64,000 nt of DNA, taken from a virus. Taxonomy: Duplodnaviria > Caudoviricetes. The stretch lies in the IMG/VR virus record IMGVR_UViG_3300028591_000084, one strand, 5' to 3'. The translations under genes were made by a program, and so were the position numbers. Positions 675-58,281 of the stretch are shown piece after piece. The notes beneath the pieces were generated by a model. It searched no databases, was not told the DNA's origin, and saw nothing but the letters and a program-made list of their open reading frames with translations. Every line of letters begins with the position of its first letter. Position 1 is the stretch's first letter.

Positions 675-2192
675 ATGTTAGAAATAAAGCACGATAAGAG
701 TATTAATCGACTTGTATTATTAACAGATGACCCTAGCGTTCACTTTTTTCTAGAGTCTAAACAATCTGAGTATGCCTATTGCGCATGGAAAAAACAGTAT
801 GATTGGGTTCACAAGATAATTAAGGTCTATGAACCAACCAAACATAGTATTACCGGTGGATATAGGTATGTTCTGGGAATAGGTTGGGCTGGATATCTTC
901 TTGGCGTATTTAAAGAATATATGAGTAAGGAAAACTACGATGATATTCTATATAATGTAGTTTTAGCAGATTCCTATAGAACAGCACCATTTCCAGAGCT
1001 TAGAGATTATCAAAATGATGATATTCTGTTTCTCTTAAAATATAGGGTAGGTCTGGTTACAGTTAATACCGGTTATGGAAAAACGCAAACCATAGCCACT
1101 TTAACAAACTATGCTTACCGAGTGTTAGGAAAGAAAGTACTCATTGTAACGCCTAATAATAAAGCGAAGGATGAGTTGATAAAGAGATGTAAGAATGTTT
1201 TTGGACTTGAAGTAAGTGACGGAAAAAATAAACTCCCCGATGGAGAGCTAGACTGTCTTATTACAGCAGGAGTTATGAATTCTGGTAGAATCAAGGATCC
1301 TGAAGAAAATGCTGAATTTCTTAAGATGTTAAGTGGCTATGAGTGGGTCTTAGCGGACGAAGTAGAATATACTATCAATAATGGTGGTAAGTATATATAT
1401 GATCATTGTACTGGGGCAGAAAGATTCTATGCTTTCTCTGGTACTGCTGATAAAACAGCTGGAGAAATAATATCCTTCGCCCAGGGACTTAGTGAGGTCG
1501 TATTAAGAAATAAAGACCTAATTAAGTATTTTGGTCCATCACTTGTTTATAGAATGCCTCTTAATATTAGTATAAGTAATATAAAAGTTAAAACAATGTC
1601 TCTGGACGATCTCCACCTTGATCGTGAAAAAATTGATGATAGTGGTAATCTTTATTCAGAGATTATGACACAAATTTGGAGTAATCCAGATGTTTGTAAT
1701 ACTTTAGTCAGAATTATAAGAAAGTATCCAAGATGCTTTATACCAATTAATAATTTGGTAAATATCTTATACTTCTGGATTGAAAATTACTTTATTGGGA
1801 GATTTAGAACTCTCTTGGTTTGCGGAGAAGGATATATCTACTATGACTTGACGGGACATACAACACACTTAACGCTTCAAGAGGCTTGTGATAAAATTGA
1901 GGCTGGAGAGGTTGATGTGATTCCAAGTACTAGTAGCGGATATAGAGCACTCGATTTTCCAGGATTAGAAAATATTTTCTTAGCTCAAGGTAAAGTGGCT
2001 GGTGTTACTCTCCAGACGATAGGACGTTGTGCTAGAGGGAAACATATGAATATAATATCATTAGAACCATTTAATACAAAAAAGAAAATCCCTGTCTACA
2101 CAAACGGATCTAAAAATCGAGAAGAGATGATTAAATCCTACTATAAATATTGTGAGATTGAGGATGTGATTATTGTAGAGGATGACTTATAA
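675..2192 (+). CDS. uvsW: SF2 DNA helicase, UvsW-like
   Basis: LRDYQ Q-motif, TGYGKT Walker A, DEVE, SGT, QTIGRCAR motif VI. Confidence 0.8.
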   Translation: MLEIKHDKSINRLVLLTDDPSVHFFLESKQSEYAYCAWKKQYDWVHKIIKVYEPTKHSITGGYRYVLGIGWAGYLLGVFKEYMSKENYDDILYNVVLADSYRTAPFPELRDYQNDDILFLLKYRVGLVTVNTGYGKTQTIATLTNYAYRVLGKKVLIVTPNNKAKDELIKRCKNVFGLEVSDGKNKLPDGELDCLITAGVMNSGRIKDPEENAEFLKMLSGYEWVLADEVEYTINNGGKYIYDHCTGAERFYAFSGTADKTAGEIISFAQGLSEVVLRNKDLIKYFGPSLVYRMPLNISISNIKVKTMSLDDLHLDREKIDDSGNLYSEIMTQIWSNPDVCNTLVRIIRKYPRCFIPINNLVNILYFWIENYFIGRFRTLLVCGEGYIYYDLTGHTTHLTLQEACDKIEAGEVDVIPSTSSGYRALDFPGLENIFLAQGKVAGVTLQTIGRCARGKHMNIISLEPFNTKKKIPVYTNGSKNREEMIKSYYKYCEIEDVIIVEDDL

Positions 2193-2224
2193 GGTAGGGA
2201 ACTAATCCTTACCTTTATTTTTTT
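2191..2224 (+). terminator. Repeated intrinsic terminator AAGGTAGGGA-AYTAA-TCCTTACCTT + T tract; near-identical copies at 47666-47700 and 59071-59104
   Basis: Hairpin plus T run directly after plus-strand stop codons; three copies seen. Confidence 0.8.
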
Positions 2225-2251
2225 GGAGAAAATAAAAAAAAAGAGGCTCTG

Positions 2252-2707
2252 TCACCTAGCCTCTAATTGTAGTAGTCTGTTAGTTAGATATTGTCCTAGA
2301 AGGAACAGTACATCAAGCTCTGAATCCTGGCACCTTAGATCCGAGAATATAACATCAGTGTTAGTTGTCATTGTATTTTCATAAATACTTATCTCATCTT
2401 TGAAATACTCTTTTATCTCTTCTAACACCTGGTCTTCAGTATTACCATCGTCACTAAGATCCCAGCCGAACTTTCGCCCCACTAGAAACTCAAAGACCCT
2501 ATAGCAGCAAGCTTTAAGTCTATTTTTTGTTACTCTTCTAACAAACTTGTTCTCGCACTTAGTGATTCGATATGCATTAACAGCTGCGTAATAATCACAT
2601 AGTGCCTCTGTTTTAGTTTCGATATCATCATAGATATCCTTAACTCTGACTCTGGTGCCTACTAAACAATAGGCCCAAGAGATCAATATAATATAAAATT
2701 TATTCAT
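2252..2707 (-). CDS. hypothetical protein
   Basis: 151 aa ORF directly preceded by promoter-like motif AAATCCTTATTGGTGAT-ATG. Confidence 0.7.
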   Translation of the reverse strand: MNKFYIILISWAYCLVGTRVRVKDIYDDIETKTEALCDYYAAVNAYRITKCENKFVRRVTKNRLKACCYRVFEFLVGRKFGWDLSDDGNTEDQVLEEIKEYFKDEISIYENTMTTNTDVIFSDLRCQDSELDVLFLLGQYLTNRLLQLEAR

Positions 2708-2793
2708 ATCACCAATAAGGATTTGAAGTGTTTATTTAGTCATATTTTCACCCTGCACTTCCTTATAGTTGAATATAAATTTCAAAAATATAT

Positions 2794-5700
2794 ATGAAGA
2801 GAGTTTTGTTATTGGATCGAGATGAGGTTAAGGACTTTGCGAGATACGTGATGAAATATAGTGCATTGTCCGTCCAAGATCTCGAATTTATGTTGGAGGA
2901 CGACCCAGTTAAATTCAAATCTATTATGTCTTTTGGCCCAGGTGATGCTATTATGTTGTGGGGCTCTAAAGCTTTTACATTCATAAAGCAATATTATCAC
3001 CTAGGTATTAGATCAGAGAATTACTGGGATTGTGCTAAATTACGAAGAGTCAGTATGGAGGGAGGAGCTTATGCGAAAGTTATTGTCGAACCTCCTACTG
3101 ATGAAGAATTGAGAGACTTTGGTAGTAGGTCTTTCACTACTAAGGTCGAATTTAACGGATTAAATGCTGGTATAATTAGTACTTATGGAGAGGCGATTGA
3201 ATTCTTGAAATTTCTTCAAGCTCAGCCGTTGAGTGATTACTTCGGCTTTGACTATGAAGGATCAGGTTTTCCTATGGATCGCTGGTATGAATTGAGTGGT
3301 TTTTCTCTATCAACAGAATCTATAGTACGTTTTATATCTTTAACTGATATTCGTCATGAATTGGGAGGAAGTGACAATGAGTCTTATCGAACGCTTCTTG
3401 CAGTTCTTGGTCAATTCTTAGTGGATCGTCAAGACCATATTGTTGTATATAATATGCAGTACGAATGGCAAGCAAGTCATCGTATGTTAGGCGTAGATTT
3501 ATACAACTTAGTAGATGCTAGTGTAGTTAATGTTCTTGATGGTTTTCATGAGAAAAAATATAGTTTAAAGTGGACGGGTCAACGAGTTCTTAGTGTTGAT
3601 GTTTGGGATGCCGAATTTGATAGAATTTCAGACCTAGTAGACCAAATGCTATTCACGGAAGAAGGAAAATTGAAGAAAGATAAACGTAAAGTTCTTCGCG
3701 TAGATCCCGGAAATTTTGAAGCTACTGAAGAGTGGGGTATATTGTGTAGTAGGTACCCAGATTATATAGATGAATTCAGATCTTTGATTTTAGAATATTG
3801 GGGTAATCCTTTTATGTGTATCCCAAGTAAAATTCTAGGCTATTACTGTAATTTGGATGCATTTTATACTCTCCAAATATTCCTAACCAAGAAGAAGGAA
3901 TATAGCGATGAGTGTATTAACGTATTTTTAGATAATATACGTCTTGGTTGTCGTCTTATGTCTAGCGGCTTGTATATAGACGAGCCTTTTAGAGCTAAAT
4001 ACGATCATTATTGTAGACAGATGATGGCCTGGGGAATAACCTATTGTGCTATGGCTAGATGCTGGATCAAGATGGAAAAGCATAAGGTTAATGCCAATAA
4101 TATAAAACGGTATAATCCCACGGCTCAGAAATTATTAAGAGAGAATCAATTTTATCAAGGAAATGCGGTAGAGATCGTTAAAAACTTGATGGCTAGATTC
4201 ATAGATCAGAACGATACGACAGAAACAGGCTTGGATGAAGGAAGGCTAATGATGACTTACGGTCCAAAATTTGCCGAAAAGTTTGTTGAAATCGTAAAGG
4301 AGTCTATGATTGAGGTTAAGATGAAGGGGAAGATAGATTCCGGTATAGTGAGAAAAAAGAAGATACTAAATATTATAGCGGAAAAATCTATTCACCTTCT
4401 CGGCCTTGATGCTGTGAAATTAGGAAATAAGCATATTGAGTTAGAGAAGTATATTTATTATGAGACAGCTTTTAATGAACTATCAAAAGTAGCCTATAAA
4501 CAGCTGACAGATATTAATAATATACCTGACAAACTCTACTTCTTTGGTAAATATTGGGATCTCTTAGAGTATTCTGATTATGTATCTGATAATTACTTTA
4601 AATGTAAGAGTCCGTTAGAAAATGACGAAATAATTTATGATATGACAATGTTATTTCGCTCACAAACAGCCTTCTTAGGGGCTCTGTCAGAAAGTACTCA
4701 ACAGCTCCCGAATACAGATAAATTTTATAGTAAGAGGGAGATAACGGATATAAATGAGGCATTTCAGGAATTTATGTGTGCCTGGGAGTTAAATTATAAG
4801 ACAGGGGAGAGAGATTCTTTATATCCTCAAAAAATGTTTACCTTGGCCTTAGAATTTTTCCAATGTCCAAAAAAGACAAAGGATCCTAAGAAAAGTACAG
4901 AAGAAAAGACTGAGTATATTTATGGAACAGCAGATAAAGTCAAAGAAATATGGACTGATTTTGTAGGTTTTAATGCTCAAACAACATATTTTCCTGCCTA
5001 TAAAGATCAATTTATAGAGTATTCAAAGCCCTTTAGACCAGAAACAGAAGCTGATGATGTATTCTTCTTTATGAGGAAATTTACCATCAACTATCTCCTC
5101 TATAAGAAATATGCTAAGATGTATTCAACTTATGTAGGACCAGATGGAATGTTTAAGAAGAATAATAAGTATGTTATTGTAGACGAGCATCACTTACCGA
5201 TAAAAGAAGTAGATCCAGAAGAACCGGGAGCAGTTGAGCTTTGTTTAGTTCGATATGAGGTACTTTCAAAAAGTAGTAAGAGATGGTCTAGTGCCTTTCA
5301 TACTATTATATCTCATAGTGACTGTAAAAATGTTCTATGTCCACCGCCAACGAGAGATGAGAATGGAAATATAGTATATGGAGGAAGCGATCAGATGCTA
5401 ACGTATTTTGACATTAGCAGCGCAGAGGTTAAATTTAGCCGTCACCTATAGTAATGTAGGTGAGCATAAACGGGCAAATAACGGTGGAATCTGTGATGAT
5501 AATACCGTGCTAACTCACCTGAATTGCGAAAGGTTAGGTGAGTAGTGTAGAGCATAGGAAGTGAATAAATATAATCTTCCCACGAGTGTCCGTCATCCTT
5601 CTGGATGAAAATATATGCCGAACTGTAGAGAAAGAGAATCTACAGAACTACTAGATAAAAAGCTAGTAGGTTAACAGAATTGTAAGGCTGCTGGCTTCTC

Positions 5701-6634
5701 GTCCCTTGACAGAGGCCTTATTTCTAAATTCAGTGCTGGCGAAGATATATACATATACAGTACAAAGCTTTATCTTGGTGAAGAAGGTTGGAATTCGCTA
5801 AGTAAAGAACAGCAGAAGGCTTGGCGTAAGAAATTCAAAACAGTCTTCCTAGGTGTCTTATACGGCTTAGGTAAAAACTCACTAGCAGAACGTTTGGAAT
5901 GTAGTTTAGAGGAAGCTGAAAGAATTATTCAATCACTCTACACATCATTCCCAGGCCTAAGAGAGTATGTGGATAAACAAGGTCAATATCCTCTTGATCA
6001 TGACGGTTACATCAACACATTTTTAGGTGATAAGCTAAGATTAAGAGAATTTTATGATTATCTCCCCAAGGCTACTAGTGATTACGAAAGGAAGAATATA
6101 ATTGCTAGAATTAAACGCCTAGGAGTTAATCTTCCAATTCAAGGTGGAACAAGTAGTATTATGGCTTGTGGATTCTTCAACAATATTAGGCAATCAATAA
6201 AAGAAGGCTGGGATCAACCTCTTCAACCTATTATTGTAGTGCATGATTCAAATACTAATTACATCCCAGTTGAAAAGATCTTTGACATCAGACATTTTTA
6301 CGATGTAAATTATACTGATTTCTGTGCTAGTTTTGGTCCTAGAATCAAGCTACTATTTGATTTATTGGCGGGCTATTCTTATGAGTCAGCTAAGGAGATG
6401 AAAACTAGAAACAATGAAATTGAATTTACTGGGGATGCCACGAGTTTAATGATGATTAGGAATAAAATAATGTCCTGTCCAAAATTAAACGTTGAATGTA
6501 GTATGTCTGTTGAAGAACTAATTGCATCTCGTCAAATAATCACGGATCCTATCGATAGATTTATTAAGGAAAATGGTTGTTGTATGGACAAAGATGTAAG
6601 TAAAGTAACTATCAAATTCAGAAAGCTTAACTAA
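2794..6634 (+). CDS. polA: DNA polymerase family A, spliced (exons 2794-5429 and 5683-6634; about 1195 aa)
   Basis: 3'-5' exonuclease motifs FDYEG, YNMQYE, YCNLDA; motif A DISSAEV-KAAG restored by splicing; motif B RKKFKTVFLGVLYG; NLPIQG; motif C VVHDS. Confidence 0.92.
5430..5682 (+). mobile_element. Group I intron without ORF in polA motif A (253 nt)
   Basis: P1 GGUUA/UAGCC with U5429-G wobble; terminal G5682; P7-like GCAUA/UAUGC; removal restores GAG GTT AAG in frame with the 5894 ORF. Confidence 0.92.
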
Positions 6635-6728
6635 AAAAAATTAGAACTTACCATTATCGTTTCGTGTAATGGCAGGTTCTTTTTTTTTTATTCGGAGTAA
6701 AAAAGAAAAAGAGGATCTTAGTCCTCTC

Positions 6729-52199: not shown

Positions 52200-52563
52200 C
52201 GACTTTACGGATTATTGGTTACTAAAAGAACATCCCTCTTCTTGGGCTGGATTGATGATTAATGCACCAATAGGCCTCGAGATTCAAGAGATCAAAAGAT
52301 TAATCTGGAGAGTTTGTTTTGAGGATCTTATACCACCAGTAATAGGAACAAATAAATATATTTCGTTAAAAGAATTTTCATTTTTATACGAATTATACAA
52401 AAATGATAATCTAAAATCTGGAATTATTAACCCTCCCCAAAAGGTAATAAAATCTGTTCCAATAACTATCTTTTATTGGGACGGATCAGAGGATATAAAC
52501 ATGTTTGATATCCATTTAGTAGAATATACAAGATGGATCGCGGAACAAGAGGTATTAAGATGA
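52174..52563 (+). CDS. hypothetical protein
   Basis: ORF in operon. Confidence 0.6.
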   Translation: MVYPFPTSDDFTDYWLLKEHPSSWAGLMINAPIGLEIQEIKRLIWRVCFEDLIPPVIGTNKYISLKEFSFLYELYKNDNLKSGIINPPQKVIKSVPITIFYWDGSEDINMFDIHLVEYTRWIAEQEVLR

Positions 52564-53003
52564 AAGACTATAATTTTTATTTTAAAAAGTTTTATTTTAA
52601 AAGCAATACTGAGATCCTTTTAACAGAATGTGCCTATCAAATTTATATATTAACAAAGGATAGTTCAATAACAAAAGAAAAGTTAGTAGAAGCATTTTTA
52701 AAAATGAAATATCTCTTTGTTAAAGGAGGTAAACATGCTTCTAGATCAATTCTTTTAAAGGAAATCAGCAACGATAAGCTATTACACTATAATTATGGTA
52801 TAGAGGATGCAGTGTTCTTTGCGGGAAATCACCTATTTAGAAGTATTGATGAGCAACATTTATCCCGTCTGTTGAGTATAGATAGGGGTATAATAATTAA
52901 TAAGGGTATGATAATATCAAAAGCCGTCAAAATTTGGGAGAATGATAAAATTGATGTAATTGAATATCCAACTGGTAGGACAGCCCTTTTAATAATAAGA
53001 TGA
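52560..53003 (+). CDS. hypothetical protein, paralogue family B (1 of 3)
   Basis: ITKEKLV...GKHAS...KIWE. Confidence 0.7.
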   Translation: MKDYNFYFKKFYFKSNTEILLTECAYQIYILTKDSSITKEKLVEAFLKMKYLFVKGGKHASRSILLKEISNDKLLHYNYGIEDAVFFAGNHLFRSIDEQHLSRLLSIDRGIIINKGMIISKAVKIWENDKIDVIEYPTGRTALLIIR

Positions 53004-53410
53004 TAAACTCTGATTTTATTATTAAAAAGATTTATTTCGAAAAATACCCAGGATTTTCCAAAATCCCCAACATATTTATCTTATCTAAAGAAGGTTTAAT
53101 AACTAAAGAAAAGATAGTTAGTGCTATAGTAAATGAGAATCTTCTTATAACTAGTGATGGTAAATATGCCTCACGCTCTTTCTTAGAAGACACTATATTT
53201 AGTCTAGAAGCTATAATATTATTTGATTTATGTGTCTTCTCTGATTATGATGAGATGTGTTTAAACTATATTCTTAATCTAGGAAAATATAATGACATGA
53301 GTGTGAGTATAGAAGACGTTATTATAAAATCTGTAGAGAAACTTTGGGAAGATAATAGCGTTAGAGCCGTTAAGGCAAAAAAGAACCAAATCCTATTAGT
53401 GATAAAATGA
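53000..53410 (+). CDS. hypothetical protein, paralogue family B (2 of 3)
   Basis: ITKEKIV...GKYAS...KLWE. Confidence 0.7.
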   Translation: MINSDFIIKKIYFEKYPGFSKIPNIFILSKEGLITKEKIVSAIVNENLLITSDGKYASRSFLEDTIFSLEAIILFDLCVFSDYDEMCLNYILNLGKYNDMSVSIEDVIIKSVEKLWEDNSVRAVKAKKNQILLVIK

Positions 53411-53820
53411 TCGACGAATCTCCACTTGTTATTAAGGAAATTTGTTTCGCGTGGGATACAGAAATAGTCGATCCAAGATTCCTGTTTGCCTTAACTAGGG
53501 AGAATCTAATGACGAAAGAAAGATTATTTAACTTCCTAGTGAAAGAGCGTGTTCTAACTGTTCGTGGAAAAAAATTTGCTTCTTATACAATACTAAATAA
53601 GGACCTTTGGATAAAAGATGTAACATATTCTCCATCATATATTAAAATGCTTAACATCGAAGAGACACAGTTAAAATATCTTCTTAATATCAATAATGTG
53701 TCTTTAATAAATACCGAAAATAGAGAGGATATTTTTGTGAAAGCAGCAGAAAAAATATGGAATGAGGGAATCGAAATTATCAAATGTTATGAACAAGCAG
53801 TCTTAGTAGTAATTAAATGA
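53407..53820 (+). CDS. hypothetical protein, paralogue family B (3 of 3)
   Basis: MTKERL...GKKFAS...KIWN. Confidence 0.7.
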   Translation: MIDESPLVIKEICFAWDTEIVDPRFLFALTRENLMTKERLFNFLVKERVLTVRGKKFASYTILNKDLWIKDVTYSPSYIKMLNIEETQLKYLLNINNVSLINTENREDIFVKAAEKIWNEGIEIIKCYEQAVLVVIK

Positions 53821-54251: not shown

Positions 54252-56934
54252 ATGAACATGAAAGAAATTAATTCTGTAAAAACAAATGAAGAAGTGATTG
54301 AGTTTCTTCCATTTCCAGAATGTGTTAGGCGTCGAGTAGGTGTTTATCTTGGCGGCAATGATCAAGAGGCTGTTAATACGGCTTTTAGAGAGATTGTCGA
54401 TAATGCCTCAGATGAAATAGCAGCTGGATATGGAGATACAATTTTATTAAGTACAAATTTTAATGGATTTTGTTTTGTAGCAGATAATGGTAGAGGTATT
54501 CCAATCTCAATGAGCAGAGATGTTCCTGAGAAGACGAGTGCTTATCTATCAATATCAGAACTACACACAGGATCAAAATTTACCAGTACCCAAGGAGTAG
54601 CAAGAGTTGGTCTTAATGGCTTAGGATCCTCAGCTACTTCTGCCTGTTCAACGGTCTATTGCTTATTGTCCAGGATAACTGAGGATAATTATAATAGATC
54701 TATTCCTGATGTAAAAACTGTTTGGGAAAAGGCAGGACCACGTTCTAAGAGAGATCTATATTATATTGTCATTATGGAGAAGGGATATAGAACGTATGAA
54801 AGTGCTGGTTCACTTAGAGATATTGAGAAGCTCTTGTTTGGAAAGGATAAAGAATATAAGATTCCCTCCGGCATGAGTACTCTGGTATTCTTTAAACCTG
54901 ATCCTGAAATTTTTGAGTCTATTAATCCCGCCATTCCTGTTAAGAATCTCCAATATTTTATGTTAATCCAGGAGAAATTCTTTAAGAGGAAAGTTAATGT
55001 TGTAATTGATGGCGTTAATATTAAAAATGATTTCAAGCCTTATCGATTTGAGGTAACAAAGATCATAACACCAAAGGACACAAGTATGAACAAAGAAGTT
55101 GGTATTTATATGTCCTTTGAGGCTGATCCTGAATTGAAAACTAAAGAAGTTACTGGATCAGTTAATGGTTTGGATTGTACAGGCCATCATCTTAGTATAG
55201 CAGAGTCAATTTATAAGGCGGCACTTAAAGATCAGTTCAAGATTAAACATTCTTATCTTGAACCTGGTATGAAATTAAATGTCATAATTCTGGCTAATGA
55301 GACGATCTTTGACTCTCAGAATAAAAGTAGAGTTAAGAGTATAGCCAAAGTCAAATCTACAGACTTCACTGAGGTAGTAAAGGATGTTGAGAAGATTTTT
55401 AGAAAATACTCTGACTATTGGGAGACTCACGTTCAGAAGTTACAATATCTGGCAGATTCTATGAGAAATATCGGTGCTATTGAAAAGGCACAGAAAATCA
55501 TAGATAGTGCCGGAGGTAATGGTATGTATCGAACAAAAGGAGATATGATAGCTGGTTTTGCTGATGCTACTGCTCCTGCAAATGATAGATGGGCTTGTGA
55601 GTGCTTTATTACTGAGGGGCTTAGTCCTTGCGGCTCTTTGAAGGCTGCTAGAAAAGCTATAGATGTAAAATATAGATGTTGTGTTCCTTTACGTGGAAAA
55701 GTGCTTGATACAAGTGATAGTACTGTCGATAAGATGATGGAAAATAAGGAATTCTTTACGATCTTTTCTCTTATGGGACTAGGTATATCAGCAAATAACG
55801 TTATCAAAGACGCTAAAGATCCGGAAGAGGCATACGAAATAATTAAAAAGAAGTCACGTTATGGCAAATTAATTATAGCTACAGATAAAACGAAAGTTTG
55901 TGTCTGAGGGTGTAGAGATACACCTAAGGAATCCTATTGTTGCGAGGAACTCTGGTTAGGTCTTAGGTACTAAAGAGTTGTAGTTAACTCTTAGTAACAA
56001 TCTTAAGAATACAGACAATTCGCTTTGTTATAAGATTAGTCTATTAATTCTATAACAAGACAACGACTATCCCTCTATGGGAGTAAGACAGCAAGTCAAT
56101 AATGGCTGTTTGAAAGATAGGATACCCAAACGTTTAAGGCGTGGGTAAAAATATAGTCTGATCTGTATGGAGACATGCAGGAGTTCATAAGAGAACCGGG
56201 AAGTAGTGACGACACTTCTTGAACAAAATGGCCGATGAAGATGGGTGGCAACAGGTTGCCCAGGGATATAGAAATATATTTCGTAATATTGCATTAAAAG
56301 CGGGGAACTCCTGTTAGGCATAAGGTACCAAAGTGTAACAACCCTTATGATAGGGACAATCCGCAGTAGAAATACTTCAACGACTATCTCAGTGATGAGA
56401 GTAGGGTGGCAAGTCTGTATAATGGCCATTCGAAAGATGCAATATCTGACCACGTAATGGTGAAGATAAAAATATAGTCTGAGCACATGGGAAACTATGT
56501 GGAGAAGAAATTCTCGTACTAAGTGTAGACGACTTAGTGTAAACAAAACTGTATCAATTCAGAAAGGTATATTATATACTATTTTGAAGTTTGCTAGATT
56601 TATGATAGATTTTGGTTTGGTTTATATTGCCGAATCTCCAATATTTGAACAAGGAGGTAAGTATTTCTATCCTAGTGATCCTAGAATACCTGGCAGTCAA
56701 TTCTGTGTAGGAATGGATCCTAATAAGAAATTTAGACGTTTTAAAGGCCTTGGTGCTCTTGAACAAGAAGATGTATATTATTCGTTCTACAATGAGCAAA
56801 CAAGACGTCTAATAAGAGTAACTCCAGAGTATGCTGATTATGCCATGGGCTTAGTAGAGGACATAAATAAAAGAAAGAAGTTACTGTTTGATAAAGACAT
56901 ATTAACTAATCCATATAATTTCACAGATCTTTAA
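54252..56934 (+). CDS. gyrB: type IIA topoisomerase ATPase/TOPRIM subunit (GyrB/ParE-like), spliced (exons 54252-55886, 56231-56246, 56552-56934; about 677 aa)
   Basis: EIVDNASDE, DNGRGIP, LHTGSKF, GLNGLG, TEGLS, PLRGK; ATD-ADEDG-LSI after splicing; RFKGLG. Confidence 0.93.
55887..56230 (+). mobile_element. Group I intron 1 in gyrB (344 nt, no ORF)
   Basis: P1 CAGAU/GUCUG; P7 GACUA/UAGUC; terminal G56230. Confidence 0.9.
56247..56551 (+). mobile_element. Group I intron 2 in gyrB (305 nt, no ORF)
   Basis: P1 UGGGU/GCCCA; P7 GACUA/UAGUC; terminal G56551; frame restored with 56552 exon. Confidence 0.9.
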
Positions 56935-56940
56935 TTAATT

Positions 56941-58281
56941 ATGCCAAAGAAAAAACCAATTGTAGAAAATTTAACAAAATCTGTTGGAGAAATAACTGAA
57001 CAAGCTTATGTTTTGTATGGTGGATATGTGGCTAATAGTAGAGCCCTCCCCAGCATACAAGATGGTCTCAAGGTGTCAATAAGGCGCTTAATTTATGGGG
57101 CAATGCAATATAAAAAAGGTGAGTGGGTCGGAGGAGATTTGTTAACTAAGACGATGCAGAAATGGCATCCACACTCAGTTGATCAAATGCACTCCTCTGC
57201 TGCTCACTTAGTTAGAGATGGTATATTTTCTGGTCATGGATTTTTTGGCTACACCTCTATTGATGGTGTGGAATCTCCCCCAGCTGCAGGTCGTTATCTT
57301 AAAATGAGACTTAGTGATCTTTACTGGGATGTGTTAGGAGAAACAACGAAGGAACCTTTTGCTCCTTTCTGTGAATCTCCCCAAGGACCAGAAGAACCAA
57401 AGTATTTCAATGTACCAATACCTATTTGTCTCTATCAAAAGATTCAGACTATGGGTTTGGCAGTAGGTTGTAGAACAAATATTCCGTCCTTCTCACCCAA
57501 ATCAATCTTAATGGCAATGAAGAATGACGACCCTAGCTTATTAGAGTGTTCAGTAGATCTTATTATCGACAAAGAAAACTCTGAGCTTGATCGTATTTGG
57601 AGAACAGGAAGAGGAACTCTCTGTTTAGCCTATAAGATTTCAAGGATGAAAAGTGAGGATGGAAAATCTGAAGGTATCTTATTTGAAAGTGCAGATAGAT
57701 GTAGTACTGATATCTTCACACCAAAGATCTCAAAGTTCCAGAAGCTTGTTGATGATGGAAAGGTTTATATTGAAGACTTGACTGATGAAAATGGTCCAAA
57801 GCTTTTCGTCGGAAGAGTTCCTGGTGCTAGAGGGATAGCGATAGAGGACATAGAGTCAATTGCTAGAAAAATTTGTTATTCAAAGATTGAGTATCAGATT
57901 TGGGTAACTGATGGAATGAGGGCTTTTAGAATTCCTATTAAAGATTGGGTTGTAGGAACTTATGACAACTATATTAATACCTTAGTGAAAGTCAATAATT
58001 CTAAATTGGAAAAGGCTAAGTTTGATCTAGCTGTTCAAGAGGCTCTCCCTGTTATATCTTCTTATATTATGAATGTTAACCCCAAAGCTAGTGATTCTGA
58101 AATTCAAAAGGAGACTGGCCTAGGGTTAGATATCATAGAAGCAGTAATGTCTAAACCGATATCACAATTAAGAAAAAATAAAGATAATTCAGATAGAATT
58201 AAAGCAATTAAAGAACGGATTAAAGAATTGAAAAAATTTGATCCAATTGTTTATACTGACAACTTAATTAACAGCTTATGA
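56941..58281 (+). CDS. gyrA: type IIA topoisomerase breakage-reunion subunit (GyrA/ParC-like, no CTD)
   Basis: RALPSIQDGLK...RRLIY, WHPH, PAAGRY catalytic Tyr; 446 aa, T4 gp52-like length. Confidence 0.88.
   Translation: MPKKKPIVENLTKSVGEITEQAYVLYGGYVANSRALPSIQDGLKVSIRRLIYGAMQYKKGEWVGGDLLTKTMQKWHPHSVDQMHSSAAHLVRDGIFSGHGFFGYTSIDGVESPPAAGRYLKMRLSDLYWDVLGETTKEPFAPFCESPQGPEEPKYFNVPIPICLYQKIQTMGLAVGCRTNIPSFSPKSILMAMKNDDPSLLECSVDLIIDKENSELDRIWRTGRGTLCLAYKISRMKSEDGKSEGILFESADRCSTDIFTPKISKFQKLVDDGKVYIEDLTDENGPKLFVGRVPGARGIAIEDIESIARKICYSKIEYQIWVTDGMRAFRIPIKDWVVGTYDNYINTLVKVNNSKLEKAKFDLAVQEALPVISSYIMNVNPKASDSEIQKETGLGLDIIEAVMSKPISQLRKNKDNSDRIKAIKERIKELKKFDPIVYTDNLINSL

Follow-up and report, generated by a model that had tools for sequence, protein, structure and literature searches.

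The window analysed here, a 64,000-nucleotide (nt) stretch of the Caudoviricetes phage recorded in IMG/VR as IMGVR_UViG_3300028591_000084, comes from a jumbo phage of ~312 kb and carries a type II topoisomerase gene whose coding sequence is interrupted twice at the codons of its metal-binding DxDxDG motif. On the evidence of the sequence, these interruptions are very probably two related group I introns, set 16 nt apart, that both splice out to give a subunit of 677 amino acids (aa). An initial annotation, made from the letters of the window, had drawn the internal exon and intron boundaries as listed here, and every coordinate held on rereading the sequence (ORF, open reading frame):

54252-55886, + strand: exon 1, 545 codons, ending ..KLIIATD; ATPase domain and first part of TOPRIM
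55887-56230, + strand: intron 1, 344 nt, group I, no ORF, at site A (after the first Asp codon)
56231-56246, + strand: micro-exon GCCGATGAAGATGGGT, 16 nt, encoding A-D-E-D-G and the first base of a Leu codon
56247-56551, + strand: intron 2, 305 nt, group I, no ORF, at site B (after GGGU)
56552-56934, + strand: exon 3, (L)SIQKGILYTILKF..NPYNFTDL and stop; rest of TOPRIM and GyrB C-terminal tail with KGLG

The ORF that starts at 54252 stays in frame through 55886 (..RYGKLIIATD) and meets a stop seven codons further on, and the ORF of exon 3 (56554-56934) lies in a different frame from exon 1; joining 54252-55886, 56231-56246 and 56552-56934 gives one open frame of 677 aa that reads ..IIATDADEDGLSIQKG.. 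The resulting protein is colinear, and gapless at the junction, with the uninterrupted GyrB of two other phages: the spliced window sequence reads KLIIATDADEDGLSIQ where Cobetia phage Carin-5 reads KLIIAADADPAGQFIC and Vibrio phage 1.031.O reads KFVLFADEDADGKQIC. In these two records the separate tblastn matches of exon 1 and exon 3 lie 23 aa apart (22 aa in Rhizobium phages), which is the spacing that the micro-exon predicts. The closest intron-less allele (L014, 78% identity) reads ARYGKLIIATDADEDGLSIQKGII and has the same junction peptide as the window, KLIIATDADEDGLSIQKGI, and two further intron-less alleles (L012 and L013, 79% identity) read KLVIATDSDEDGLSIQKGI / ..KLVIATDSDEDGLSIQKGIL; in L012 and L014 the stretches that align with exon 1 and with exon 3 lie 21 nt apart, matching the 16 + 5 of the window. 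Colinearity and the identical junction peptide thus bear out the original proposal of a 16-nt micro-exon encoding ADEDG. The predicted spliced protein has the junction-spanning peptides ..ATDADEDGLSIQK.. / ..LIIATDADEDGLSIQK and the intact motif ..ATDADEDGLSIQ.., and omission of the micro-exon would give ..IIATDYQFRKVYYILF / ..ATDYQFRKVYYILF and then a stop after 16 codons, the frameshift that had been foreseen for skipping.

We read the gene as a B-type (GyrB / ParE / T4 gp39+gp60) topoisomerase II subunit broken inside TOPRIM because of the Pfam domains of exons 1 and 3. Exon 1 matches HATPase_c (E 8.9e-5) and positions 3-64 of the 96 of Toprim (E 0.0031), both under the Pfam cut-offs, and exon 3 matches DNA_gyraseB_C (E 2.5e-4), under its cut-off; an uninterrupted homologue with 78% identity (P0003) matches ParE and GyrB structures at E 5.6e-37. 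The features of a type IIA B-subunit, namely the GHKL ATPase, the TOPRIM Glu and DxD, the KGLG tail and a partner A gene, are all present. The acidic cluster DxDxDG holds the Mg2+-binding residues of the TOPRIM fold in GyrB and ParE. In the P0003 alignment ATDADEDG falls on MTDADTDG of S. pneumoniae ParE (4juo_C), so that the micro-exon supplies the motif's last two Asp and its Gly. Across 13 full-length homologues D544, D546, D548 and G549 do not vary, in keeping with the earlier assignment of the micro-exon to the TOPRIM acidic motif. The expectation that ORF callers would miss the exon was also correct: the protein-collection entry for the gene, on a 311,995-bp contig, is a 551-aa product ending ..ATDKTKVCV.

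A U precedes each 5' splice site and a terminal G closes each intron. Exon 1 ends with GCTACAGAT at U55886, in frame with the ORF from 54252; intron 1 ends with ..AACAAAATG at G56230 and intron 2 with ..AACAAAACTG at G56551, after which exon 3 starts with TATCAATT. Read from the sequence, each intron has its own guide at its 5' splice site, and the two P1 helices are placed as follows:

55882-55906, + strand: P1 of intron 1, exon CAGAU (55882-55886) with guide GUCUG (55902-55906); U.G pair at the splice site
56242-56262, + strand: P1 of intron 2, exon UGGGU (56242-56246) with guide GCCCA (56258-56262); extended by GGC/GUU

P1 of intron 1 is the minimum-energy local fold (-7.9 kcal/mol), and that of intron 2 ties for minimum energy in its extended form (-9.4 kcal/mol; the 5-bp P1 alone, -4.7). 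Ending intron 1 at the next G instead would shift the frame into a stop, and for intron 2 no alternative U as 5' site leaves the frame open (both read from the sequence); the 3' junction of intron 2 is fixed by colinearity with the intron-less alleles. The P1 of intron 1 differs on both strands from that of relatives (CAGAU/GUCUG vs CGGAU/GUCCG), tracking the synonymous Thr codon ACA/ACG, and guide and exon likewise vary in step across L003, L004, L005, L007, L009, L010 and L011.

Both inserts match the group I intron model RF00028. When the 1-kb region was searched, intron 1 matched at 55879-56180 (46.6 bits, E 1.7e-10) and intron 2 at 56237-56501 (39.9 bits, E 1.8e-8), each match spanning the full model and beginning 8-10 nt inside the preceding exon, which holds the 5' strand of P1; over the whole window the same two matches have E 1.1e-8 and 1.1e-6 and are the sole ones at E <= 0.01. 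The introns share 76% mean column identity with each other, and their cores match other phage DNA, in places in or beside genes for ribonucleotide reductase, DNA polymerase and HNH homing endonucleases; one such match is annotated Intron_gpI in a Staphylococcus phage. Covariation was assessed on six ORF-less introns, the two from the window and four from homologous genes of related metagenomic phages. RNAalifold recovered P2, P3, P4, P5, P5a, P7.1, P7.2, P8 and the P9 hairpin, and P7 was added to this structure as a pseudoknot. With P7 included, 92.7% of the cells pair, as against 37-46% once the 3' partners are slid by 1-3 columns; both-sided changes occur in 38/64 pairs, and the observed values were reached by none of 500 shuffles. 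P3, P4, P5, P7 and P8, including the P3/P7 pseudoknot core, could be mapped in both introns, which have P7 (GACUAU/AUAGUC) in common:

56065-56070 / 56153-56158, + strand: P7 of intron 1, by helix mapping
56382-56387 / 56474-56479, + strand: P7 of intron 2, by helix mapping

P7.1 and P7.2, which lie between P7 and P3', are 94% and 88% paired, with both-sided changes in 3/3 and 5/7 pairs, and their predicted presence points to subgroup IA for both introns. P3 differs between the two (UCCUAUU/GAUAGGA in intron 1, UUGCAUU/GAUGCAA in intron 2), and a hybrid P3 would contain, by eye, two central mismatches. A motif scan placed exact copies of ACGACTAT..ATATAGTC in the two introns and nowhere else in the window. 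Model matches, recovered core helices and covariation together support the identification of two group I introns with which the initial annotation began.

Several points weigh against this identification, or against the splicing that we propose. Neither intron (46.6 and 39.9 bits) reaches the RF00028 gathering score of 50 bits, and an Rfam search at the gathering threshold returned nothing on the window because both scores fall below 50. That score is a curation threshold and not a structural feature, and the E-values are far beyond chance; to our knowledge, the model was not built on this intron subgroup. The covariation was read from just six sequences, including both window introns, and is supportive rather than final. 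P10 is weak, by eye forming five of six pairs, mostly wobble, in intron 1 and about three pairs in intron 2, self-splicing without a protein helper is assumed, and the spliced form of this phage's protein was not found in the protein collection.

In the proposed mechanism each intron would excise itself by the two usual transesterifications of group I chemistry and, with both excised, exon 1, the micro-exon and exon 3 would be joined in the mRNA for the 677-aa subunit with its motif intact. Since intron 1 is transcribed about 300 nt before the core of intron 2, it is probably the first to be spliced. Of the micro-exon, the first bases would pair in the weak P10 of intron 1 and the last five in P1 of intron 2. 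Because the introns differ in P1 and P3, cross-folding and skipping of the exon should be disfavoured. In engineered tandem Tetrahymena introns, differentiated splice-site recognition elements favour exon inclusion (PMC10136302), and we therefore expect inclusion of the micro-exon to be the main outcome.

The window captures one state of an insertion hot spot found in many related phages, a point that was absent from the initial annotation and that lowers the singularity of the locus. In a census of the 120 best homologue clusters, based on called proteins and not on inspected DNA, the ORF ends, relative to P0003, as follows:

Normal C-terminus: 41/120 clusters
After the first Asp (site A): 25/120 clusters
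After the second Asp: 13/120 clusters
After the third Asp: 8/120 clusters
At or just after the Gly (site B): 3/120 clusters
At KGL(G): 28/120 clusters
Near residues 494-498: 2/120 clusters

The reading frame is thus broken inside the six DxDxDG codons in 49 of the 120 clusters, at four positions. An insertion of more than 60 aa (intein-sized) between ..ECFI and TEGLS.., beside the TOPRIM Glu, is present in 44/120, most of them with Pfam Intein_splicing (PF14890) and among them P0013, P0017, P0020, P0022 and P0053-P0081; the window gene is without such an insertion. In one of its three closest relatives (P0004, 507 aa, 78% identical) the ORF is already broken after ..DKM of ..VDKMMENKEF.., which hints at a further insertion site upstream of DxDxDG.

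The DNA was inspected for nine interrupted loci (L003-L011), given here with the exon/guide pairing of their introns where it was read:

L003: site A (CGGAU/GUCCG) and the KGLG site (2502-2826; GGAU/GUCC), both introns without an ORF
L004: site A (2693-4111; CGGAU/GUCCG), with a 352-aa ORF inside the intron
L005: intron A (CGGAU/GUCCG) with a 320-aa ORF (5115-6451), a 15-nt micro-exon AGCGATGAAGATGGT and intron B (6467-6725)
L006: sister allele of L005 with no intron A and the same intron B, reading ACGGATAGCGATGAAGATGGT unbroken
L007: after the third Asp (AGGAU/GUCCU), without an ORF
L008: after the third Asp, without an ORF
L009: site A (2105-3767; CGGAU/GUCCG) with two HNH ORFs, and the KGLG site (3982-4355; GGGU/GCCC)
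L010: after the second Asp (5100-6566; CGGAU/GUCCG), with HNH ORFs
L011: after the second Asp (5121-6691; CGGAU/GUCCG), with HNH ORFs

Within the motif, L003 and L004 have the site-A intron only and then read contiguous ADEDGLAIQ. L005, to judge from its sequence, is a second, independent twin arrangement: it belongs to a lineage with only 53% protein identity and lies on a 301,585-bp contig (the same protein occurs on four more contigs), and its intron B diverges more, matching RF00028 only weakly (22 bits, E 0.0064). Rfam at E <= 0.001 found no match on L003 or L004, though both clearly carry homologous introns. Introns with a near-identical 5' end (TAGAATTA.TCTGAGTCCGTGAG..) follow the first Asp in L004 and L009 and the second Asp in L010; they would therefore be the same element at different Asp codons with CGGAU context, and their placement suggests movement between neighbouring sites. 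The pairwise identities of intron ends were too flat (70-89%) to name the parent relative of either window intron. The KGLG introns sit after the GGAU or GGGU of K-G-L, and the equivalent place in the window, at ~56744-56755 (FKGLG), is uninterrupted; the exon context of the KGLG intron in L009, GGGU|UA, is also that of window intron 2.

Taken together, the loci are consistent with one intron family having spread among neighbouring sites of this gene. Three of its sites within the motif would follow an Asp codon in a GGAU context that pairs with the guide GUCC, so that the repeated GAU codons of DxDxD could serve as several landing sites, reached either by endonuclease homing to look-alike targets or by reverse splicing. 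Relatives would then hold zero, one or two motif introns, some with homing-endonuclease genes, and the window would represent the combination of site A and site B from which both endonuclease genes are absent.

Could the two inserts instead be dead intron relics or unspliced insertions, with the enzyme assembled from separate polypeptides in the manner of T4 gp39 + gp60, or the gene be a pseudogene? T4 topoisomerase II is functional with its large subunit split near this motif (bioRxiv 10.1101/2022.08.31.505936), and an ORF that starts with an ATG at 56497, within intron 2, shares the frame of exon 3. If the inserts stayed in, however, neither product would contain the last two Asp and the Gly of DxDxDG, residues that are invariant among homologues; the core helices, both P1 helices and both terminal G residues are intact, with pairing kept by compensatory changes, unlike decaying relics, and exons 1 and 3 are open and conserved. 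We regard this explanation as very unlikely. Removal of 55887-56551 as a single unit, by exon skipping or by a composite ribozyme, with the micro-exon a coincidence, strikes us as barely credible. The two introns are related, and skipping has been documented in engineered tandem Tetrahymena introns and in Twort orf142, whose 23-nt exon lies between two similar IA2 introns (PMC10136302), but here single-unit removal would shift the frame into a stop after 16 codons, and the 16 nt encode exactly the residues of the uninterrupted homologues at the right spacing. The introns differ, moreover, in P1 guide (GUCUG vs GCCCA) and in P3, where a hybrid would suffer the two mismatches mentioned above, and differentiated recognition elements favour inclusion (PMC10136302).

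The initial annotation had also noted that the start of intron 2 can form a GGCAA/UUGCC hairpin, which competes with its P1 and might order or gate splicing. The hairpin can indeed form, inside 56242-56262, and it overlaps the guide sequence of intron 2; a role in splicing order or gating found no support, the hairpin being weaker than P1 and absent in L007 and L009. A regulatory device, in which either this competition or an obligatory splicing order gates active topoisomerase, has in its favour that one 16-nt exon has to serve both introns and that, in a local fold, the hairpin and a small second one inside the micro-exon jointly match the energy of the extended P1 (-9.4 kcal/mol). Taken alone, though, GGCAA/UUGCC reaches -5.0 against -9.4 kcal/mol for the extended P1, of which it is a shifted register of the extension; by eye it is missing from the closest related introns, L007 and L009, and relatives make do with zero to two introns whose positions shift, a pattern of selfish spread and not of a conserved switch. 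There is accordingly little to recommend the device. A broader form of the idea, in which the micro-exon is more than a selfish by-product and an obligatory order or a tunable inclusion/skipping ratio would set the amount of active topoisomerase II, for example in early vs late infection, or could shut the enzyme off if splicing were disturbed by a co-infecting relative, is speculative and seems to us a long shot. The reading that we prefer remains that of two related introns, both spliced out, with the micro-exon retained.

Downstream, the gene is followed by its partner:

56941-58281, + strand: GyrA/ParC-like (T4 gp52-like) topoisomerase II subunit gene (Pfam DNA_topoisoIV, E 1.2e-20)

The order of B-subunit gene and then A-subunit gene is the same in all related loci, which marks the locus as a topoisomerase II unit of two genes. 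Immediately before the topoisomerase gene, three tandem ORFs (156, 136 and 137 aa; 52533-53820, + strand) look like mutual paralogues, with the common stretches ..(I/M)TKE(K/R).. and ..G(K)..AS(R/Y)(S/T).L.. and a shared ending ..(I/V)I(R/K). Exon 1 used as a query against viral contigs found no relatives, and when 24 kb of the window was compared with phage records by megablast, only 50-nt matches within intron 1 came back. A search of metagenome contigs returned two closer and uninterrupted loci (L015 and L016), other matches being only 23-34% identical to the query.

One practical consequence concerns annotation. Gene callers cut this essential gene into ORFs of 551 aa and ~145 aa and lose the catalytic DxDxDG residues, and they do likewise in dozens of related metagenomic phages; the "truncated" topoisomerase genes of gut and rumen jumbo phages should therefore be read as intron-bearing. 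The locus is also a compact natural case of mobile elements packed into active-site codons, with four intron positions in six codons, another at KGLG and, next to the catalytic Glu motif, an insertion the size of an intein, and the occurrence of one intron type after different Asp codons with matching P1 is a hint that guide retargeting moves the family between GAU sites. A 16-nt exon common to two differentiated ribozymes may further serve as a natural test case for exon-inclusion rules, which so far come from engineered tandem introns. The understanding of how group I introns work is unchanged by this locus.

Among known systems, the closest counterpart is orf142 of the Staphylococcus phage Twort, in which a 23-nt exon lies between introns 2 and 3 and skipping was detected by reverse-transcription PCR (Landthaler and Shub 1999, as summarised in PMC10136302). 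There, as in the window, two highly similar phage group I introns lie in one protein gene with a very short exon between them that is the 3' exon of one intron and the 5' exon of the next, which raises the same question of inclusion or skipping; the window locus thus belongs with tandem same-family group I introns separated by an exon of a few tens of nt or less (16 nt, 76% identity, same helices). The Twort exon is longer (23 nt vs 16 nt in the window and 15 nt in L005), and orf142 has no known function, whereas the window exon carries catalytic metal-binding residues; skipping was seen by RT-PCR in Twort, and in the window it would break the frame. A second precedent is the 23S rRNA of Coxiella burnetii, where skipping of a 34-nt exon between two group I introns was observed, according to PMC10136302; that case involves an rRNA gene and introns of different subgroups, and the window a protein gene and introns of the same family.

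Gut jumbo ("Jug") and crAss-like phages average 18.5 group I introns per genome, with metatranscriptome support for the splicing of 37 of 76 introns (PMC12880540). In these large phages of gut Bacteroidales short group I introns, homing endonucleases and inteins interrupt many essential genes. The passages searched in that paper name terL, nrdD and DNA polymerase as split and topoisomerase IV only as a conserved core gene, and a term search found neither a micro-exon nor a TOPRIM hot spot there. Nor did the open-access literature yield a report of a phage topoisomerase with group I introns in its TOPRIM motif, although a term search of it cannot prove absence.

The same spot of the same protein family is interrupted in T4 (gene 39 / mobA / gene 60), where the mobA element always inserts in the TOPRIM domain (bioRxiv 10.1101/2022.08.31.505936). 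The 50-nt translational bypass gap of T4 gene 60 (NC_000866, L095 2803-2852, minus strand) comes right after ..IMTDADHDG (GAT GGA / gap / TTA), at a Gly/Leu boundary that is the intron B site of L005 and L006 and lies one base upstream of window intron 2. T4 copes with a split protein and ribosome hopping, whereas the window would, as we propose, rely on RNA splicing. The T4 gap was also considered as a remnant of an intron 5' end, both holding TATAGAAATA, and this was rejected, since alignments against eleven 5' ends stayed within the shuffle range (best p ~0.05). The spread that we envisage has a parallel in polr2a of Bodo saltans virus, in which an endonuclease-bearing intron seeded related ORF-less copies nearby in the same essential gene (PMC5871332); its parental and offspring introns show the same pattern as that proposed for the window, although in the RNA polymerase gene of a eukaryotic giant virus and not in a phage topoisomerase. 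Set beside these systems, the anatomy of the locus is a known kind of arrangement, whose exon is unusually short and whose hot-spot context is well documented, and is not mechanistically new.

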